In this document: positions 2,832 through 20,732 of the stretch, in pieces
Position numbering within the stretch: position 1 is the first letter of the stretch
Layout: every line of letters starts with the position of its first letter
NCBI GenBank assembly: GCA_944392625.1
Contig: CALXXG010000079.1
Location: forward strand, 1 to 41,436
Direction of reading: 5' to 3'
DNA: 41,436 nt
DNA from: an uncultured Rickettsiales bacterium
Lineage (GTDB): Bacteria; Pseudomonadota; Alphaproteobacteria; Rickettsiales; UBA1997
Translations under genes and position numbers: made by a program
Notes under the pieces: generated by a model
The model's input: the letters and a program-made list of their open reading frames with translations, nothing else
Told to the model about the DNA's origin: nothing
The model's database searches: none

Positions 2832-4489
2832 AATCTTCTCTGTATATTTTTTGCCTTATCAAAGTCAATTATTTCATAATTGACTTTTTTATTCTCTAAA
2901 TCTTTTATAACTTTAATATAGCCATACCTCGCCATTGTATCATTTCCATTAATATAAAATACATTATCTGGAGTGTTTGGATTTGTTATTGTATAGCCCA
3001 TGATTTTTGCAATTAACAGTCCAAGTTCATGATGGGTTGGTCTGAAAGTTTCTTTTAAGTTATTTTTTATTTCATTATTTTCAGTATATAGCATTATAGG
3101 CACATCACCACCTTCTGGGACTAAAGTTATATGCCCGAAAAGTCCATTTTGTCCTGTTAATTCATTGTGATCTGAGGTTATAAATAAATATAAAGGGATT
3201 TTTGAATTAGCTTTAAAATATTCAATTATTTGGTTTAAAATAAAATCATTGTATAGCATTGCATTATCATAGCTATTGTCAAACCTACTAAATTCTTTTT
3301 TTCTATGGGAATAATTTTTTTCATATGGTGAATGCAAATTTCTTTGATGCAAAACTATAAAATTTTTATCCGTTAATTTCTGTTGTTTTAATATTTGCAG
3401 CAACGCTTCATCTTTATTTTTTTCAAATAAACCCCTTTCATCCTCAAGAGTTATAAAGACATCTATATATTGTCTTCCTAAATTATTCATCAATCCACTG
3501 CTTTGGGCAGAAATAAAAATCGTTCTAAATCCTTGTTCTTTTGCTAATTTAAATAGATTTAACTGTGCTTCGGCCTGCATTCTATAATTTTTCGGCTCTC
3601 TCTGTAAATTGAAAAATGTTGGTATTGACTGTTGTGTTGATACTGCAGTAGATATGCCTTTTTTATAAACAAAATTTTTATCTTTTTTTGAGAGTTCCAA
3701 TAAATTTGGTGTTGTGTTTTTATTATAGCCATACAAACTTTGATTGTAATAGTTAAAACTTTCGCCGTATATTAAAACTAAATTCATTTTATCATTTATT
3801 GGTTTTTCTTTTTTTACTTCATAATCTTTAAATACATGTTCCTCATTATTGTCAATTGTAGATGGCAATATATTGAATAAATAGGCGGAATACATCCTTA
3901 AACCATTATATAACGATGGGTATTGTGGATTTGGAGATAGTTTTGCAATACTTACCTCTCTTATTGCCCTTAATGGCAATAGAGATAAAAATACAAAAAA
4001 TAAAATCCAAGCAAATTTAAATGAAAATAACTTTTCATGATATTTTTTTATTAAGAATATCATGATTCCATAAGGTATCAATACAGATAAAAACGCATAG
4101 TATACTTTGCCAATTGATCCAAAACCAGTTTCACTTATTTCACCAATTTCTTTAAATATTAATGGGATTATTGTTGGTTGTAAATAAGTTCCAAAATATG
4201 ATAAATATATTAATTGAGTTAGTTCAATAAAACCAATTATGGATAATATTGAATATATTAATTTTTTATTACGAATAAATAGAATTAAAATTGAAAGTAT
4301 TAAAGCTAAAGAATAATACTTAAGTGAGAAATGGACTTTATTAATACTATTAAAAAGTTTAAAAATATAATCGTCTGCTATAAAAAGAATTGAAAATATA
4401 AATATAAATAAACACTGAAGTAATATTTTTTGCAGTATTTCTTTATAATTTTTTTGTTGTAGAATGTGTTTTAATTTTTTAAATAGCAT
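2828..4489 (-). CDS. Phosphoethanolamine transferase (EptA-like, sulfatase superfamily)
   Basis: N-terminal TM helices; IYGES, catalytic Thr region (TAVSTQQS), LHQRNLHSPY, YDNAMLYND, TSDHNE. Confidence 0.85.
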   Translation of the reverse strand: MLFKKLKHILQQKNYKEILQKILLQCLFIFIFSILFIADDYIFKLFNSINKVHFSLKYYSLALILSILILFIRNKKLIYSILSIIGFIELTQLIYLSYFGTYLQPTIIPLIFKEIGEISETGFGSIGKVYYAFLSVLIPYGIMIFLIKKYHEKLFSFKFAWILFFVFLSLLPLRAIREVSIAKLSPNPQYPSLYNGLRMYSAYLFNILPSTIDNNEEHVFKDYEVKKEKPINDKMNLVLIYGESFNYYNQSLYGYNKNTTPNLLELSKKDKNFVYKKGISTAVSTQQSIPTFFNLQREPKNYRMQAEAQLNLFKLAKEQGFRTIFISAQSSGLMNNLGRQYIDVFITLEDERGLFEKNKDEALLQILKQQKLTDKNFIVLHQRNLHSPYEKNYSHRKKEFSRFDNSYDNAMLYNDFILNQIIEYFKANSKIPLYLFITSDHNELTGQNGLFGHITLVPEGGDVPIMLYTENNEIKNNLKETFRPTHHELGLLIAKIMGYTITNPNTPDNVFYINGNDTMARYGYIKVIKDLENKKVNYEIIDFDKAKNIQRRF

Positions 4490-4501
4490 TATTATAGATA
4501 G

Positions 4502-4524
4502 AAAAAGGAGGGGGCTCCCCCTCC
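4502..4524 (-). terminator. Rho-independent terminator of rubrerythrin gene
   Basis: GGAGGGG/CCCCTCC stem followed by a T-run on the minus strand. Confidence 0.75.
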
Positions 4525-4536
4525 AAAAATTTAATA

Positions 4537-5118
4537 TTAAAATAATACATCGCTAACTTCAATAAAATACCCCTGTGGATGTCCGCATGCAGGACAAACT
4601 TTTGGAGCGGTTTTTGAAGTGATATGAAAACCACAATTTGTGCATTTCCAAACAACTAGATCATTTTTCTTTAATAACTCTTGAGTTTCAACTTCATTTA
4701 AAAGTTTCTTAAATCTTTCTTCGTGGTAAACTTCTGCTTTAGCAATATTTTCCATAGCAGCTGCGATTTCAGGAAAGCCTTCTTCTTTTGCAATTTTTGC
4801 AAATTCTGGATACATAACAGAATTTTCTTCATGTTCACCATTCATAGCTTCCATTAAATTTTCTGCAGTAGTGCCAATTCTTCCTGCTGGATATGTAGCT
4901 GTAATTTCCAATTCACCACCTTCTTCTAAAAACTTAAAAAGTCTTTTAGCGTGAGCTGACTCATGATTTGCTGTTTCTTCAAATACTGCAGCAATTGCTT
5001 CATAACCTTCTTTTTTTGCTGTTGATGCAAAAAATGTGTATCTATTTCTTGCTTGTGACTCACCAGCAAAAGCTTTTAACAAATTTTCTCTAGTTTTTGT
5101 ACCAATTAATGATACCAT
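4537..5118 (-). CDS. rbr: Rubrerythrin
   Basis: AFAGESQARNRY, ExxH di-iron motifs, C-terminal CxxC...CPxC rubredoxin domain. Confidence 0.95.
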   Translation of the reverse strand: MVSLIGTKTRENLLKAFAGESQARNRYTFFASTAKKEGYEAIAAVFEETANHESAHAKRLFKFLEEGGELEITATYPAGRIGTTAENLMEAMNGEHEENSVMYPEFAKIAKEEGFPEIAAAMENIAKAEVYHEERFKKLLNEVETQELLKKNDLVVWKCTNCGFHITSKTAPKVCPACGHPQGYFIEVSDVLF

Positions 5119-12476: not shown

Positions 12477-12531
12477 ATATAAATATAATTTATACAAATA
12501 ACTTTCTAATTTAACAATACTATATGAAAAA

Positions 12532-18195: not shown

Positions 18196-19188
18196 ATGCC
18201 AGGAAATACATTCGGAAATCTATTAAAGCTAACAACATGGGGCGAAAGCCATGGCATAGCTATTGGAGGCGTTTTAGACGGCGTTCCATCAAATATAGAC
18301 CTAGATGAAGACTATATACAGCAATATCTAGATAAAAGGAAGCCGGGACAGCAGAACACATCGCAAAGAAAAGAAGATGATAAAATCAAAATTTTGTCCG
18401 GCGTATTTAATGGCAAAACTACGGGAACGCCAATAGCTTTTATGATTGAAAACAAAGACGCACATTCAAAGGACTATTCAAACATAAAAGATTTGTTTAG
18501 ACCAGGGCATGCTGACTACACCTATTTCAAAAAATATGGCATTAGAGATTACAGAGGCGGTGGCAGAGCATCCGCAAGAGAAACAGCCATAAGAGTTGCA
18601 GGAGGTGCAATAGCCAGAAAAATTATTCCAAATATTGAAATAACAGGAAAACTGATTCAAGTTGGAAATTTAAAAAATAATTGGGATGAATTAATAGAAA
18701 AAGTTAAATCAGAAGGCAATTCAATAGGGTCAAAAATAGAAATTATTGCAAAAAATGTTCCAGTTGGACTTGGCGAACCAATTTTTGACAAGCTTGACGC
18801 AGAAATTGCAAAGGCCGTCATGTCCATAAATGCAGTAAAAGCCGTTGAAATAGGCGAGGGAACCAATGCCGTTAATTTAACAGGACTTGAAAATTGCGAT
18901 CAGATGGCAATGGAAAACAATAATATAAAATTTTTATCAAATCATGCCGGCGGCATTTTAGGCGGCATCTCAACAGGACAGGACATCATAGTAAGAGCAA
19001 CCATAAAGCCAACAAGCTCAATATCAATTCCGCAAAAAACAATCACAACAAACTGCACAAATGCCGAAATTTCCACAATCGGCAGACACGATCCATGCAT
19101 TGGCATAAGAGCAATACCAGTTGCCGAAGCAATGCTTGCACTTGTATTGGCGGATTATTATTTGATTAACAGGGCATATAGAGATTAA
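18196..19188 (+). CDS. aroC: Chorismate synthase
   Basis: [37 protein letters not shown]. Confidence 0.97.
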
Positions 19189-19229
19189 AAATTGAAAATT
19201 GAAAATTGGCCTTCGACAGAAGTGCCAAC

Positions 19230-19366
19230 TTCACCACCCTGTGAAAAGTCTCTCTCAGTCCCTCTTGTGAAATACCCAGCACTAACCACCCCCCTGTGAA
19301 ACCCCCATTTCACCCCCCCTGTGAAGCCCCATTTCACCCCCCTGTGAAGGGGAGATATGGGGGTTC
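19230..19366 (+). repeat. Left array: five copies of a (C)nTGTGAA repeat, ending in a REP-like hairpin unit
   Basis: TGTGAA at 19240, 19266, 19295, 19320, 19343 (spacing 26, 29, 25, 23), each preceded by a C-rich run. Confidence 0.85.
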
Positions 19367-19767
19367 AAAAAGACTGTCTTTATATATTTACACTGCTAAT
19401 ATATTAATAAGAATGAATAGATAAAGAATATTACTATTATATATAATAGTAATAATAAAAAAAGACTTTTATATATATAATATAATGTTACAATTATTAT
19501 TTTCTTAATTATATTAGTTTATAATTAATTTATTTATTATAAATTAATAATTCTTTATTTATAATTTATAATTTTAAATTATAAATTATTTATTCTTAAT
19601 TATTTATTATTATTTTATTCTTTATCTTTTTTATTTTTTAATATTTTTTTTAATATTTTATTATTCTTAATTTTTTTATTTTTAATATTATTTTTATTTT
19701 ACTTTTAGTTTACAATTTCTTTTTGATTCTCTGCTAAGGGATAATTTTTAATTATTAATTTCTTTTA

Positions 19768-19816
19768 TCAACCCACCGTCCCTTCGGGACACCTTCCTTA
19801 CAAATGGAGGCGAACC
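19768..19816 (+). repeat. Second repeat family, copy 1 (GTC-hairpin-GAC element)
   Basis: Inverted homologue at 20229-20279 and a degenerate copy near 20162-20210. Confidence 0.8.
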
Positions 19817-20126
19817 CCCCTTACCCCCCTTCACAGGGGGGGCCGAGAGGGGTCTCTTATCCCCACTTTACAGGGGGGACCGAGAGGGGTCATTCACAGG
19901 GGTGTTGAAGATGTAGTTCCCTCACATGGTGGTCGAGAAGTAGTCTCATTGATGAGTGTAATGTAGAACATCTTCACATGGGGGTGATGTTTGGTGTGGT
20001 TCTTTACAAGGGGGATTGATAAAAACCCTTCACAGGAGAGTTTAGACGGATGATTCCTTCATAGGGTGGGGGCGATTAGTGTGGAAGATCTTCATTAAAG
20101 TTGGTGGAGAAGGAGATTCACAGGAT
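19812..20126 (-). repeat. Right array: about 9-11 copies of TTCACAGGGG-like repeat, inverted relative to the left array
   Basis: TT(C/T)ACA-like cores at 19830, 19867, 19893, 19921, 19973, 20003, 20029, 20058, 20117 (weaker at ~19945 and 20091). Confidence 0.8.
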
Positions 20127-20228
20127 GATGTCGTTAGTTCTTTGTATTTTAGGAGATTGACTTGTTTCAATTCGTAAGGAAGAATGCCAACGAAGCTAAC
20201 AAGTAGTTTAATAATAGAATTAAGAATT

Positions 20229-20279
20229 GGTTCGCTTCCATTCGTAATGGGGGTGTCTGCTCAGCAGACGGTTGGTTGA
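20229..20279 (-). repeat. Second repeat family, inverted copy
   Basis: Reverse complement TCAACCAACCGTCTGCTGAGCAGACACCCCCATTACGAATGGAAGCGAACC aligns to 19768-19816. Confidence 0.8.
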
Positions 20280-20303: not shown

Positions 20304-20732
20304 TTAATTATTTATAGCTAAATACTCAATCGCCATTAAATATCCAGTGCTTCCAAAACCTGATATTATGCCGGTAGCAGCCATTGATATATAGGATGTA
20401 TGTCTAAAATTTTCTCTTTGAAAAATATTTGAAAGATGAACTTCTATTATTGGAATGCTTAGCATTTTTAATGCGTCAAGAATTGCAACAGATGTGTGAG
20501 TATAGGCGCCTGCATTGATAATTAATGCGTCATAATTTCCTATTGTATTTTGTATCCATTCAACTATTTGTCCTTCATAATTGCTTTGTTTGAAGTCTAG
20601 TTCAAAACCATTTTCTTTTGCTTTTTTTAGACATTTATTTTCAATGTCTTTTAATGTTTCTTTTCCATAAATTTGTGGCTCACGTTTGCCTAGCATATTT
20701 AGGTTTGGACCGTTTAAAATCAATATTTTCAT
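20304..20732 (-). CDS. aroQ: Type II 3-dehydroquinate dehydratase
   Basis: [39 protein letters not shown]. Confidence 0.97.

Follow-up and report, generated by a model that had tools for sequence, protein, structure and literature searches.

A mosaic hairpin-repeat element between aroC and aroQ of an uncultured Rickettsiales bacterium as a possible nuclease-less derivative of DUF559 cassettes

REP-like repeats are, to our knowledge, common in bacteria, and RAYTs make up the only enzyme family that we know to be tied to them; we also know of no REP family with long arrays of same-orientation units that decay outward. BIME repeats alternate in orientation. RPEs have units of about 150 bp, and we are aware neither of an enzyme that serves them nor of an established mode of spread for RPEs and other palindromic repeats that lie in frame. 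Iteron origins and parC-type centromeres, with their inverted arrays on either side of an AT-rich core, are similar in appearance to the locus described here. Among published descriptions, the relevant sections of PMC3733652 assign to REP/REPIN-RAYT systems a conserved GTAG or CGTC head by the palindrome, and those of PMC10969869 present RPEs as palindromic repeats inserted in frame in unrelated genes, whose reading continues through them. Passages of PMC3424549 unite Vsr, DUF559, and the homing endonuclease I-Bth0305I in one PD-(D/E)XK group. The ShiLan-type insertion of actinophage DNA methylases, as portrayed in excerpts of PMC11855218, is in-frame, non-splicing, and endonuclease-bearing, and is thought to loop out of the host protein. 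The hairpins of PMC2677866 are 5'-UTR translational hairpins and not element ends.

We analyzed a window of 41,436 nucleotides (contig CALXXG010000079.1, assembly GCA_944392625.1; genome G000, with G006 and G008 as sister genomes). One copy of a repeat element occupies positions 19184-20279, intergenic between the convergent aroC and aroQ. The eight annotated flanking ORFs comprise shikimate-pathway genes, a D-Ala-D-Ala carboxypeptidase, RecJ, and one unknown, with no cas gene among them. The features are as follows.

18196-19188, plus strand: aroC (chorismate synthase; NCBIfam NF003793, E 1.6e-130), flanking gene outside the element
19184-19225, plus strand: module A, (GAAAATT)n followed by the GGCCTTCGACAGA hairpin, adjoining the outer end of the left array
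19234-19336, minus strand: left array, four CCCCCCTGTGAA-type units with linker, read as TTCACAGGGGGG on the minus strand, decaying leftward (outward)
19337-19366, no strand assigned: IR-L, left 30-nt inverted repeat, degenerate, with 4/30 positions off the family consensus (15 aligned cores)
19367-19768, plus strand: polar AT-rich core (alignment of 15 cores from G000 and G006)
19769-19811, plus strand: module B, consisting of CAACCCACC, hairpin 1 (GTCCC-TTC-GGGAC), ACAC, and hairpin 2 (CTTCCTTACAAATGGAGG)
19812-19841, no strand assigned: IR-R, right 30-nt inverted repeat GAACCCCCCTTACCCCCCTTCACAGGGGGG, exactly the family consensus
19842-20127, plus strand: right array, eight further CTTCACAGGGGGG units with G/A-rich linker, decaying rightward (outward)
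20229-20279, minus strand: inverted module B copy at the far right end, its hairpin 1 stem different and compensated (GTCTGC...GCAGAC)
20304-20732, minus strand: aroQ (type II 3-dehydroquinate dehydratase; NCBIfam NF003806, E 7e-66), flanking gene outside the element

With up to three mismatches, CTTCACAGGGGG matched 20 times in the window versus 5.34 ± 2.11 times in 100 shuffles, none of which reached 20. Fourteen of these matches fell within 19235-20127: five on the minus strand on the left (19235, 19261, 19290, 19315, and 19338; spacing 26, 29, 25, and 23) and nine on the plus strand on the right (19829, 19866, 19892, 19920, 19972, 20002, 20028, 20057, and 20116; spacing 37, 26, 28, 52, 30, 26, 29, and 59). 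The gaps of 52 and 59 each hold one extra, very degenerate unit, which brings the right side to about 11 units. The five left and roughly 9-11 inverted right units reported in the preliminary description were thus borne out in their positions, and the innermost 30-nt inverted pair that it named, 19337-19366 and 19812-19841, was found to be 87% complementary. Each 30-nt IR consists of a further C6 run and, after it, a C6-loop-G6 hairpin. The IR-R hairpin folded at -8.2 kcal/mol with z = -1.42 versus shuffles; such z-scores are uninformative for the IR hairpins because shuffles of G/C runs fold nearly as well. The values for module A were -7.6 kcal/mol and z -3.05, and those for the inverted module B copy -8.2 kcal/mol and z -2.95; the two module B copies have 29-nt arms (19788-19816 and 20229-20257) at 83%. 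The array units are hairpins related to the IR hairpin, with a G/A-rich linker where the IR has its first C6-TTA part, and hence are not simple copies of the 30-mer. The length of the C-run at 19336 differed between metagenome samples.

The linkers had been described as mostly different, which proved incorrect: neighboring units have GGGGGGNCCGAGAGGGGTC in common, and TRF reported a period of 37 at 88% and, for 2.7 copies in the left array, a period of 24 at 90%. As the linkers share motifs, they are decayed duplicates and not spacers. The arrays are like CRISPR arrays in their short repeats, fairly regular period (mode 27 nt over 47 IR-anchored arrays), and better-kept units at one end. In contrast to CRISPR arrays, the conserved unit comprises only 12-13 nt, the linkers are homologous down to a G/A-rich consensus, two arrays stand as mirror images, and units are translated inside genes; no cas gene lies among the eight annotated flanking ORFs. 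A CRISPR-like reading of the arrays was rejected, the linkers being decayed duplicates.

The outward degeneration of the copies held both in the window and beyond it. Going outward, the window units had 0, 0, 1, 3, and 2 mismatches on the left and 0, 1, 2, 3, 1, 2, 2, 2, and 3 on the right. The 47 IR-anchored arrays of G000 and G006 were then surveyed with units accepted up to four mismatches; at least one outward unit was present in 46 of them (median 5, maximum 19), and the inward control gave units in 9/47. Mean mismatches by rank climbed from 0.4 at the IR through 1.33 and 1.8-2.0 to 2.4-2.6 at ranks 6-7, a modest gradient that is curtailed by the four-mismatch limit and falls to 1.91 at rank 8. 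The GC content of the 27-nt unit fell outward from 0.68 through 0.59, 0.54, and 0.54 to 0.48.

Unit numbers differed between G000 and G006 at two orthologous loci. At the first, G006 holds one extra 24-nt unit in the left array, and its right array is longer by 82 + 31 nt past the second unit. At the second, the two genomes differ most midway along the left array, and G006 is without the entire right array. The differences in unit number resemble deletions between repeated CCGAGAGGGG motifs. The mid-array differences and the loss of a whole array are better fitted by recombination between units than by strictly inner-end growth. The polarized addition of units at the inner ends, proposed from the window, agrees with the mismatch and GC gradients and with the tandem perfect IR copies of G006; the two orthologous comparisons, with units gained or lost at inner and middle positions and one array gone, make it no more than a candidate mode of growth. 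We infer from the gradients that the arrays may have grown at their inner ends.

The layout of array, IR-L, core, module B, IR-R, and array recurs on other contigs of G000 (C30, C41, C12, and C196) and in the two sister genomes, in G006 at many loci. With up to three mismatches, the 30-nt IR occurred 102 times in G006 and 32 times in G008, where the copies carry their own loop variant TTATCA, and was absent from G001, G004, and G007 (0 copies each); a reversed-pattern control gave 0 matches. A looser pattern found four copies in G000 and was positive in 7/126 genomes of the family, belonging to 2/17 genera. At least 27 IR copies of G006 are perfect, with non-orthologous cores only 69-93% identical. 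The 15 cores of G000 and G006 aligned in the same block order at 69-98% pairwise identity. A conserved block (AAAAAGACTGTCTTTATATATTTACACTGCTAATA...) begins at 19367 and another, near 19455-19500, gives way to AT tandem repeats that vary; the block near 19722-19750 resembles an inverted module A, which is itself a separate dispersed repeat family with 15 copies in G000. Hairpin 1 of module B covaries, as 32 of 34 distinct copies keep a perfect stem of at least 5 bp with at least six different stem sequences among the 34.

No ORF of at least 60 aa was found in 19367-19811, so that the window locus combines terminal inverted repeats with no coding capacity, as MITEs do. More broadly, it resembles BIME, BOX, and MITE elements in being a mosaic of IR units, module A, and module B in variable number, with inverted ends, no ORF, and dispersal within the genome. 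Unlike BIMEs, its arrays hold same-orientation units. No DDE-transposase IS came to light as a parent; the sole gene found between the same ends is DUF559, which is not a known transposase. The element was absent downstream of aroC in all four other genus genomes examined. A BLAST search of the locus matched 24 of 41 relatives, mostly through the AT-rich core at 68-75% identity, and these matches were treated as low-complexity and not as evidence of the element. No clean pair of filled and empty sites, from which a target-site duplication could be read, was found for the IR-core-IR unit: the candidate, with G000:C120 as the empty and G006:C50 as the filled side, turned out to be rearranged, judging from the other flank (G006:C71), and so did G006:C88 versus G000:C172. 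Pairs of IRs 2.6 kb apart in G008 (C21, C7) were considered as autonomous copies and discarded, since they merely flank ordinary genes.

In G008:C14 and G006:C46, the space between IR-L and IR-R is taken by DUF559 (PF04480), and the bracketed domain is read in frame inside recG. The frames are open for 1001 aa (G008:C14) and at least 1107 aa (G006:C46) and contain RecG_dom3_C, Helicase_C, and a DEAD domain broken into two parts. The IRs that surround DUF559 in G006:C46 have exactly the IR-R sequence of the window, and module B forms the end repeats of another DUF559 cassette, located in leuS of G006 and G001. The C-run/loop/G-run repeats of the window thus also bracket DUF559, which is the sole protein found inside the IR-bracketed unit; its closest solved relative is 3hrl (E 5e-9). 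In G126, an IR doublet adjoins the DUF559 ORF. The leuS gene of G000 lacks DUF559 and the inner hairpins but retains the decayed units farther out; a shared TCCATT marks the junction. In priA of G000 and G006, about 165 aa are inserted in frame, an insert missing from four of nine genus genomes, and in both priA and recG, repeat units are translated as part of the host frame. Pfam searches of the recG and leuS frames returned host domains and DUF559 only; because no intron/intein (Hint) domain appeared, the cassette is most simply taken to be read through.

The window core has no Vsr/DUF559-fold nuclease by ORF content or tblastn. The idea that the AT-rich core is a decayed DUF559 gene was dropped after a tblastn of four insert proteins against the 15 cores, in which only the parts encoded by the IRs and module B matched. 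DUF559 was not found in G000, which is 69% complete and whose recG contig (C148) begins within the in-frame array, so that a trans-acting nuclease in the organism of the window is an assumption. The earlier suggestion that the arrays are ends of a mobile nuclease element with amplified termini is accordingly retained for the ends, which bracket DUF559 in G006 and G008; the window copy is without the nuclease, and its mobilization is what we infer. The absence of an associated protein, which would have favored a neutral minisatellite, applies to the window locus only.

DUF559 homologues occurred in 43 of the 126 family genomes against the seven with the IR, which means that most DUF559 copies must use other ends or none. 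Across phyla, at least 120 loci matched the IR pattern; six among those hold DUF559, in all six cases at most 60 nt from the IR. Different phyla and many unrelated proteins carry the IR-DUF559-IR cassette; in Poribacteria and Paludibacter, it occupies an identical site in one and the same methylase. Longer homologues amounted to 133 proteins at E <= 1e-20, in which DUF559 is fused to methylases, RecG, LeuS, PriA, Mfd, RNase HII, and others. Among the 120 listed of these 133, all 12 proteins examined have a PPDKGG-type stretch before the domain, and 10 of the 12 a PPLSGG- or SPLIRG-type stretch after it; the other two (P0103, which is the SelD fusion of the cultured Methylococcus sp. Mc7, and P0097) end with the domain. 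No published description of the IR-DUF559-IR cassette was found in the main texts of mainly open literature.

Compared with REP/REPIN-RAYT systems, the family has similar short hairpin-forming repeats in tens to about 100 copies per genome, found as single copies, in mosaics, or, in G126 and GC-rich MAGs, as inverted doublets, and one or a few nuclease-type genes bracketed by the same repeats in inverted orientation. It differs in its enzyme, which is DUF559 of the Vsr fold and not a Y1 HUH transposase (no PF01797 in G000, G006, and G008), in an IR without the GTAG/CGTC head, and in the many copies, the enzyme included, that lie in frame inside genes. The in-frame insertion of palindromic repeats in AT-rich Alphaproteobacteria is common to RPEs and to this family, which shows it in priA, recG, and leuS and not at the window locus; unlike RPEs, the repeats here are 30-nt hairpins with arrays and are linked to a nuclease gene. 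The likeness to Vsr-like (EDxHD) homing endonucleases of the I-Bth0305I type lies in the nuclease fold group, to which passages of PMC3424549 assign DUF559 and DUF2726 as well, in the recurrence of the insertion site between genomes, and in cassette host genes that belong mostly to DNA metabolism. Those endonucleases reside in group I introns, inteins, and 'fractured genes', whereas Pfam showed no Hint/intein domain here, and the cassette has its own hairpin inverted repeats and many nuclease-less progeny at unrelated sites. With the ShiLan-type insertion, it has in common the in-frame, unspliced, homing-type, and endonuclease-carrying character. According to the excerpts of PMC11855218, the ShiLan-type nuclease is HNH, encoded out of frame, and found in phage, and these excerpts make no mention of hairpin inverted repeats, arrays, or nuclease-less copies.

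Altogether, we consider it probable, at roughly 60%, that the window locus is a dispersed, mosaic, non-coding selfish element, a nuclease-less derivative of the DUF559 cassette that is refreshed in trans by the nuclease. The locus would then be a non-autonomous derivative of the IR-DUF559-IR cassette, and the DUF559 nuclease, linked to the hairpin repeats by association in the genomes compared, a putative mobilizer of these repeats. The nuclease could copy or refresh nuclease-less copies in trans: it would nick or cut at the hairpin ends, after which repair templated by a further copy would re-create a perfect IR next to the core. Each event in which repair goes out of register, the end is duplicated in tandem, or a nested re-insertion is followed by a deletion might add one hairpin unit. 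The older a unit, the farther outward it would be displaced and the more it would be worn down by AT-biased mutation in this 27% GC genome, and recombination between units would also shrink and grow the arrays. Nuclease, repeats, and nuclease-less derivatives are seen here side by side in closely related genomes, and a hairpin repeat family is tied to an enzyme other than RAYT, namely a DUF559/Vsr-fold nuclease. If the nuclease acts on the hairpins, this would account for the widespread and odd annotation of DUF559 inside methylases, RecG, PriA, LeuS, and other proteins, offer a mechanism for in-frame selfish DNA without splicing, yield a nuclease whose target is defined and recognized by sequence or structure, and turn the outward-decaying arrays into a rare internal clock of element activity.

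A broader suggestion, which we put forward tentatively and with considerable doubt, is that DUF559 hairpin cassettes form a distinct class of mobile elements, with a start- and stop-less Vsr-fold nuclease, repeats that serve as Pro/Gly linkers, unspliced residence in essential proteins, REP-like progeny, and arrays that are a time-ordered record. The hairpin repeats around the nuclease would be read as Pro/Gly linkers and so allow the cassette to reside in essential proteins without splicing. Every time the nuclease drives repair or re-homing in this AT-rich lineage, one hairpin unit would be added beside the core, and the mirror arrays would grow in a CRISPR-like manner, if from the element's own ends.

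Part of the same evidence could be read without the nuclease, an explanation that we regard as unlikely. Hairpin repeats might spread by replication stalling at G/C runs, slippage, unequal recombination, and ectopic gene conversion, with DUF559 as cargo or neighbor, and the locus would be a hairpin minisatellite seeded by a repeat family with another or a host mobility enzyme. The deletion-like differences between CCGAGAGGGG motifs, the entire array lost at the second orthologous locus, the variable C-run at 19336, the lack of a DUF559 match in G000, and the 43 versus seven genomes all fit such a history. Slippage, however, cannot put the same 30-mer at about 100 dispersed sites, nor does this history account for at least 27 perfect copies in a 27% GC genome while neighboring units decay. 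The IR-DUF559-IR arrangement is also constant (6/6 listed loci, with an upstream IR-type stretch in 12/12 examined proteins), and no protein other than the nuclease was found within the unit. A host function is improbable on the evidence at hand. The arrays might be bound by a host protein or have been adopted by the host, for instance to terminate transcription from both sides or insulate aroC from aroQ, or to serve as an iteron site like that of an origin or centromere, and the position between convergent genes, at a local minimum of the cumulative GC skew and kept at the orthologous site in G006, would suit this, as would the general resemblance to iteron origins and parC-type centromeres. 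Against it, there are many copies per genome, some in frame inside priA and recG, the units decay instead of staying conserved, the element is missing downstream of aroC in the four other genus genomes, the skew minimum coincides with a switch of gene orientation, and terminator-like sites number 1 versus 1.5 expected. A replication origin (oriC or archaeal ORB-type boxes, given the skew minimum near 19.0-19.5 kb) was rejected because the element is multi-copy, the skew turn equals the gene-orientation switch, and the SRP RNA is bacterial.

The remaining readings find still less room beside a nuclease-less DUF559-cassette derivative. A divergently transcribed repeat-spacer or structured RNA locus, with promoters in the AT-rich core and outward transcripts processed to units of about 27 nt, would suit the G-rich strand that runs 5' to 3' outward on both sides, the UUCG-type hairpin of module B with its covarying stems, and 13 promoter-like sites versus 7.4 ± 2.8 expected. 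It appears highly improbable, as the linkers share motifs and a consensus and are hence not unique spacers, units of this kind are translated as part of priA and recG, a DNA cassette in leuS likewise ends in the covarying hairpin, and no Rfam family reached the gathering score (the best hit in E-value mode, where matches were at chance level only, had 17.3 bits against a threshold of 58.6). The repeat-spacer RNA array of the preliminary description fails on the decayed, motif-sharing linkers and the lack of an Rfam match. No tRNA or tmRNA was found in the region, and the promoter and terminator scan is uninformative in such AT-rich DNA. Hairpin ends without an ORF generally recall REP and IS200 ends, and yet a decayed IS200/IS605-type insertion sequence or a REP-RAYT relic is hardly credible, since PF01797 (Y1_Tnp) was not found in G000 (69% complete), G006 (91%), and G008 (96%), is present in G001, which has none of these IRs, and the IRs are without a GTAG or CGTC head. 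An assembly artefact of a repeat-rich metagenome bin, to which we assign next to no probability, would be in keeping with the 200 contigs of G000, many of which break at these repeats, and with the fact that no metagenome contig from four runs spans the entire element; the uncovered middle of the core (19623-19693, skipped as a repeat; other uncovered parts vary by run) carries no weight. It is countered by the independent genome G006, which has the same structure at the same locus with 83% identity over all 1115 bases, and by contigs from four runs of two studies, which join aroC to the left array and the start of the core, and the right array to aroQ. For practical work, it is relevant that these repeats break metagenome assemblies in this group. 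In the four metagenome runs, the depth of the contigs with module A ranged from 100 to 1500.

The feature in the window belongs to a hairpin-repeat family linked to DUF559 nucleases (PF04480, a Vsr-fold domain); it is a mosaic copy lacking the nuclease, with end arrays that are unusually long, mirror-image and outward-decaying. It lies in the 1115-nt gap separating two convergent genes:

18196-19188, + strand, aroC, left flanking gene
20304-20732, - strand, aroQ, right flanking gene

The genome of the window (G000) is bacterial, with 27.2% GC and 1.49 Mb in 200 contigs, and is 69% complete. With up to three mismatches allowed, CTTCACAGGGGG matched the 41.4-kb window 20 times versus 5.34 ± 2.11 times in shuffled sequences, and none of 100 shuffles reached 20. 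Fourteen of the 20 matches were within 19235-20127, the left five on the minus strand and the right nine on the plus strand, and the innermost units were part of a 30-nt inverted pair (19337-19366 and 19812-19841, hereafter IR-L and IR-R) that is 87% complementary. Unit spacing was 23-29 nt in the left array and 26-37 nt in the right one, where two double gaps of 52 and 59 nt each held one very degenerate unit. The motif search against shuffles confirmed the preliminary description of the units as to positions, two opposed orientations, spacing and innermost inverted pair. The linkers, considered there mostly different, are not so, because neighbouring units share GGGGGGNCCGAGAGGGGTC; Tandem Repeats Finder reported a left 24-nt unit with 90% matches and a right 37-nt unit with 88% matches. 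A CRISPR-like system was rejected on account of the shared GGGGGGNCCGAGAGGGGTC. The length of the C-run at window position 19336 varied among samples, one or two additional C being present in contigs of the metagenome runs X1 and X3; the runs holding the stretch are gut metagenomes. Cumulative GC skew in the window turned at 12500, 19250, 27000 and 39500. Near 19250, gene orientation changes at the same place as the skew (ORFs listed for 16-24 kb), and this turn was not read as a replication origin.

In G000, TTCACAGGGG occurred 13 times, five times at the window locus and otherwise on contigs C30, C41, C26 and C183. Reading of these contigs revealed the same architecture as at the window locus, in this order:

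array of CCCCCCTGTGAA units
IR-L, CCCCCCTGTSAAGGGGGGWWWGGGGGGTTC
conserved start, AAAAAACTGTCTTTATATATTCACACTGCTAATA
AT-rich core, 300-530 nt
module B: CAACCCACC, hairpin 1 (TTC(G) loop), ACAYC, hairpin 2 CTCCCTTACAAAGGGAGG
IR-R, GAACCCCCCTTACCCCCCTTCACAGGGGGG
array of CTTCACAGGGGGG units

An alignment of 15 cores, drawn from G000 and its sister genome G006, showed one and the same block order, with pairwise identities of 69-98%; the two highest values belong to orthologous pairs. Next to the left array, at 19184-19225, lies module A, (GAAAATT)n AGCCTTCGGCAGA, a separate repeat family with 15 copies in G000; one block of the AT-rich core resembles inverted module A. At least three repeat families thus make up the mosaic at the window locus. 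The module A family, also given as (GAAAATT)n AGCCTTCGGCAGAGAATCATATAGAAATT, was often tandem with a unit of ~57 nt and occurred also on G000 contigs C15, C104, C193, C120, C144, C50, C88, C36 and C26; in four metagenome runs its contig depth was 100-1500.

The 30-nt IR, with up to three mismatches, was present in 102 copies in G006 (at least 27 perfect among the matches listed) and in 32 copies in the second sister genome, G008, where the loop variant is TTATCA. None were found in G001, G004 and G007, and the reversed pattern, used as a control, gave 0 matches in every genome searched. A looser IR pattern matched 7 of the 126 genomes of the family and 2 of its 17 genera, so the distribution is patchy. 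G006 carries an element at the same aroC-aroQ locus with 83% identity across all 1115 bases, the flanking proteins being 98.8% (AroC) and 97.2% (AroQ) identical; downstream of aroC in all four other genus genomes examined there was no element, and another gene followed within ~30 nt. The same IR variants were also seen in public genomes labelled uncultured Rickettsiales bacterium, and in the public genome collection the IR pattern marked at least 120 stretches in many phyla, often as inverted doublets ~80 nt apart. In G006 and G008, many IR matches lay no more than a few hundred bases from a contig end; short-read assemblies of this group are evidently broken by these repeats.

The arrays were walked outward from 47 IRs in G000 and G006 DNA with a cut-off of four mismatches to the 12-mer. 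At least one unit was met in 46 of them (median 5, maximum 19), versus 9 of 47 in the inward control walk; the commonest unit spacing was 27 nt (range 24-31), and a further mode lay at 52-58 nt. On average, the units differed from the 12-mer at 0.4 positions at the IR, 1.33 at rank 1, 1.8-2.0 over ranks 2-5 and 2.4-2.6 over ranks 6-7, a gradient that is noisy at later ranks and truncated by the cut-off. From the IR outward, the GC content of the 27-nt unit was 0.68, 0.59, 0.54, 0.54 and 0.48. The unit consensus was (C)CCTTCACAGGGGGG plus a G/A-rich linker; thus the units are hairpin-plus-linker copies and not full 30-mer copies.

At the aroC-aroQ locus, G006 had one additional 24-nt unit among the inner left units, 82 and 31 additional nt beyond the second right unit and a core 42 nt shorter than in G000, the outer units being collinear. 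A second locus with orthologues in both genomes (G000 C30/C196 and G006 C63) was collinear in its outer eight and its inner left units; the middle differed by ~330 nt and the right array of ~500 nt was wholly absent from G006 C63. These differences, together with tandem perfect IRs 41-43 nt apart in G006, indicate that the arrays are dynamic. The array data fit renewal beside the core and recombination between units, and they fall short of proving strictly polar growth.

PF01797 (Y1_Tnp, the RAYT-type transposase) had no match in G000, G006 and G008 and was found in G001, which has no IRs; a reading of such loci as IS200 relics was not confirmed. One of the at least 120 IR-pattern stretches was directly upstream of a DUF559-like ORF. 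The question of the gene between intact inverted ends, raised in the preliminary description, was answered in the related genomes: a PF04480 search of the genus placed the domain exactly between IR-L and IR-R in G008:C14 and G006:C46. The domain lies there inside open frames, 1001 aa and at least 1107 aa long, that Pfam identified as RecG with the DEAD domain split into two stretches. A second DUF559 was in frame within leuS of G006 and G001, flanked on both sides by stretches reading QPPADFVSTPLTKGG, which at the DNA level are module B. Both hairpin types of the window element, IR and module B, are thus ends of nuclease cassettes. DUF559 was not found in G000 (69% complete, with the recG insert partly unassembled). 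Its leuS (C23 ~4395-4589) is without nuclease and inner hairpins and keeps the outer decayed units, with TCCATT shared at the junction in comparison with G006 and G001; this state reflects a deletion or else an empty site.

Other copies also lie within genes. G000:C86 25620-25990 carries IR-R and a decaying array of 30-nt period in frame within priA, adding ~165 aa absent from PriA of G001, G002, G003 and G005 (872 aa in G000 and 880 aa in G006 versus 706-713 aa in these four). In G008, where PriA is 973 aa long, an IR-R-type array occupies that same position and an IR-L-type array follows further on. The G000 recG contig (C148, 1-260) starts within an in-frame decayed array, and the inner insert part, where G006 and G008 have DUF559, is absent from the assembly. 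In the IR the C6 and G6 runs are kept and the loop varies (TTCACA, TTGACA, TTAACA, TTATCA, TTGTCA). Among 34 distinct copies of module B hairpin 1 in the DNA examined, 32 had a perfect stem of at least 5 bp, and at least six different stem sequences surrounded a TTC or TAY loop. That perfect C6/G6 runs serve as Pro/Gly codons in a 27% GC genome points to constraint at the DNA level, and the hairpin structures are read as selected.

The IR-DUF559-IR cassette is general. DUF559 was present in six of the 120 IR-pattern loci listed (custom HMM, E <= 1e-43), each time within 60 nt of the IR: in Omnitrophota, Paludibacter, a Firmicutes MAG, an unclassified MAG, Poribacteria and a Rickettsiales-labelled MAG. 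The Poribacteria (L197, 1180-1594) and Paludibacter (L110, 101-619) MAGs have IR-DUF559-IR at the same site of a nearly identical DNA methylase; the same methylase and site in two phyla suggest that the host gene was transferred with the cassette, or that the cassette homed into a conserved site. The Omnitrophota MAG has the cassette joined to the N-terminus of an RseP-like protease. A search for longer homologues gave 133 proteins of 243-1753 aa (E <= 1e-20), with N6_N4 methylases (the majority), RecG, LeuS, PriA, Mfd, RNase HII, NUDIX, HsdS/HsdM, SelD, UreG and others as fusion partners. Flanks were inspected in 12 of the 120 matches listed (133 in total): a PPDKGG-type stretch preceded DUF559 in all 12, and a PPLSGG- or SPLIRG-type stretch followed it in 10, the remaining two proteins ending with the domain. 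These stretches correspond to IR-L and IR-R translated in frame. A DUF559 homologue occurred in 43 of the 126 family genomes, and 28 of the 56 listed matches were in open frames of 570-1208 aa; the closest solved structure was 3hrl (E 5e-9). SelD of a cultured Methylococcus isolate (P0103) carries the cassette at its C-terminus with several IR-type stretches ahead, and this isolate would be a tractable organism.

We favour, with a probability of about 0.6 as a whole, an explanation in which the DUF559 nuclease would act on the hairpin ends and drive copying of full cassettes and nuclease-less elements alike. Repair from another copy would renew the IR beside the core, end duplication, or nested insertion followed by deletion, would leave old hairpin units outside, and AT-biased mutation would erode them there. 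The explanation starts from the observed architecture, copy numbers, decay gradient, turnover, in-frame copies and IR-DUF559-IR association, to which nuclease action and copying are added by inference. The main rival, in which hairpin-driven slippage and recombination would act and the nuclease is a passenger, seems to us unlikely. Perfect IRs stand against cores with an identity of only 69-93%, a contrast that argues for an ongoing process at the IRs rather than recent bursts alone, and the tandem and nested arrangements fit self-targeting.

In a literature search of mainly openly available papers, no printed description of a DUF559 hairpin cassette was found. Closest in print is the ShiLan element, an in-frame endonuclease insertion in phage methylases that does not splice; its nuclease is an out-of-frame HNH, and hairpin repeats go unmentioned in its abstract (PMC11855218). 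Vsr-like homing endonucleases have a similar fold and choice of host genes (PMC3424549, PMC2677866, PMC9403480), and Rickettsia palindromic elements are likewise translated through inside genes (PMC10969869). REP/REPIN-RAYT systems share the working plan of repeats and a repeat-bracketed enzyme, but the element differs from them in both defining features, the enzyme (RAYT) and the sequence head. The hairpin motif also forms long palindromes as inverted doublets (IR-R, ~25-50 nt, IR-L) in GC-rich MAGs (L081, L088, L089, L123, L125, L126) and in genome G126 (L075, L201); these doublets are REPIN-like, and a nuclease is lacking near most of them.
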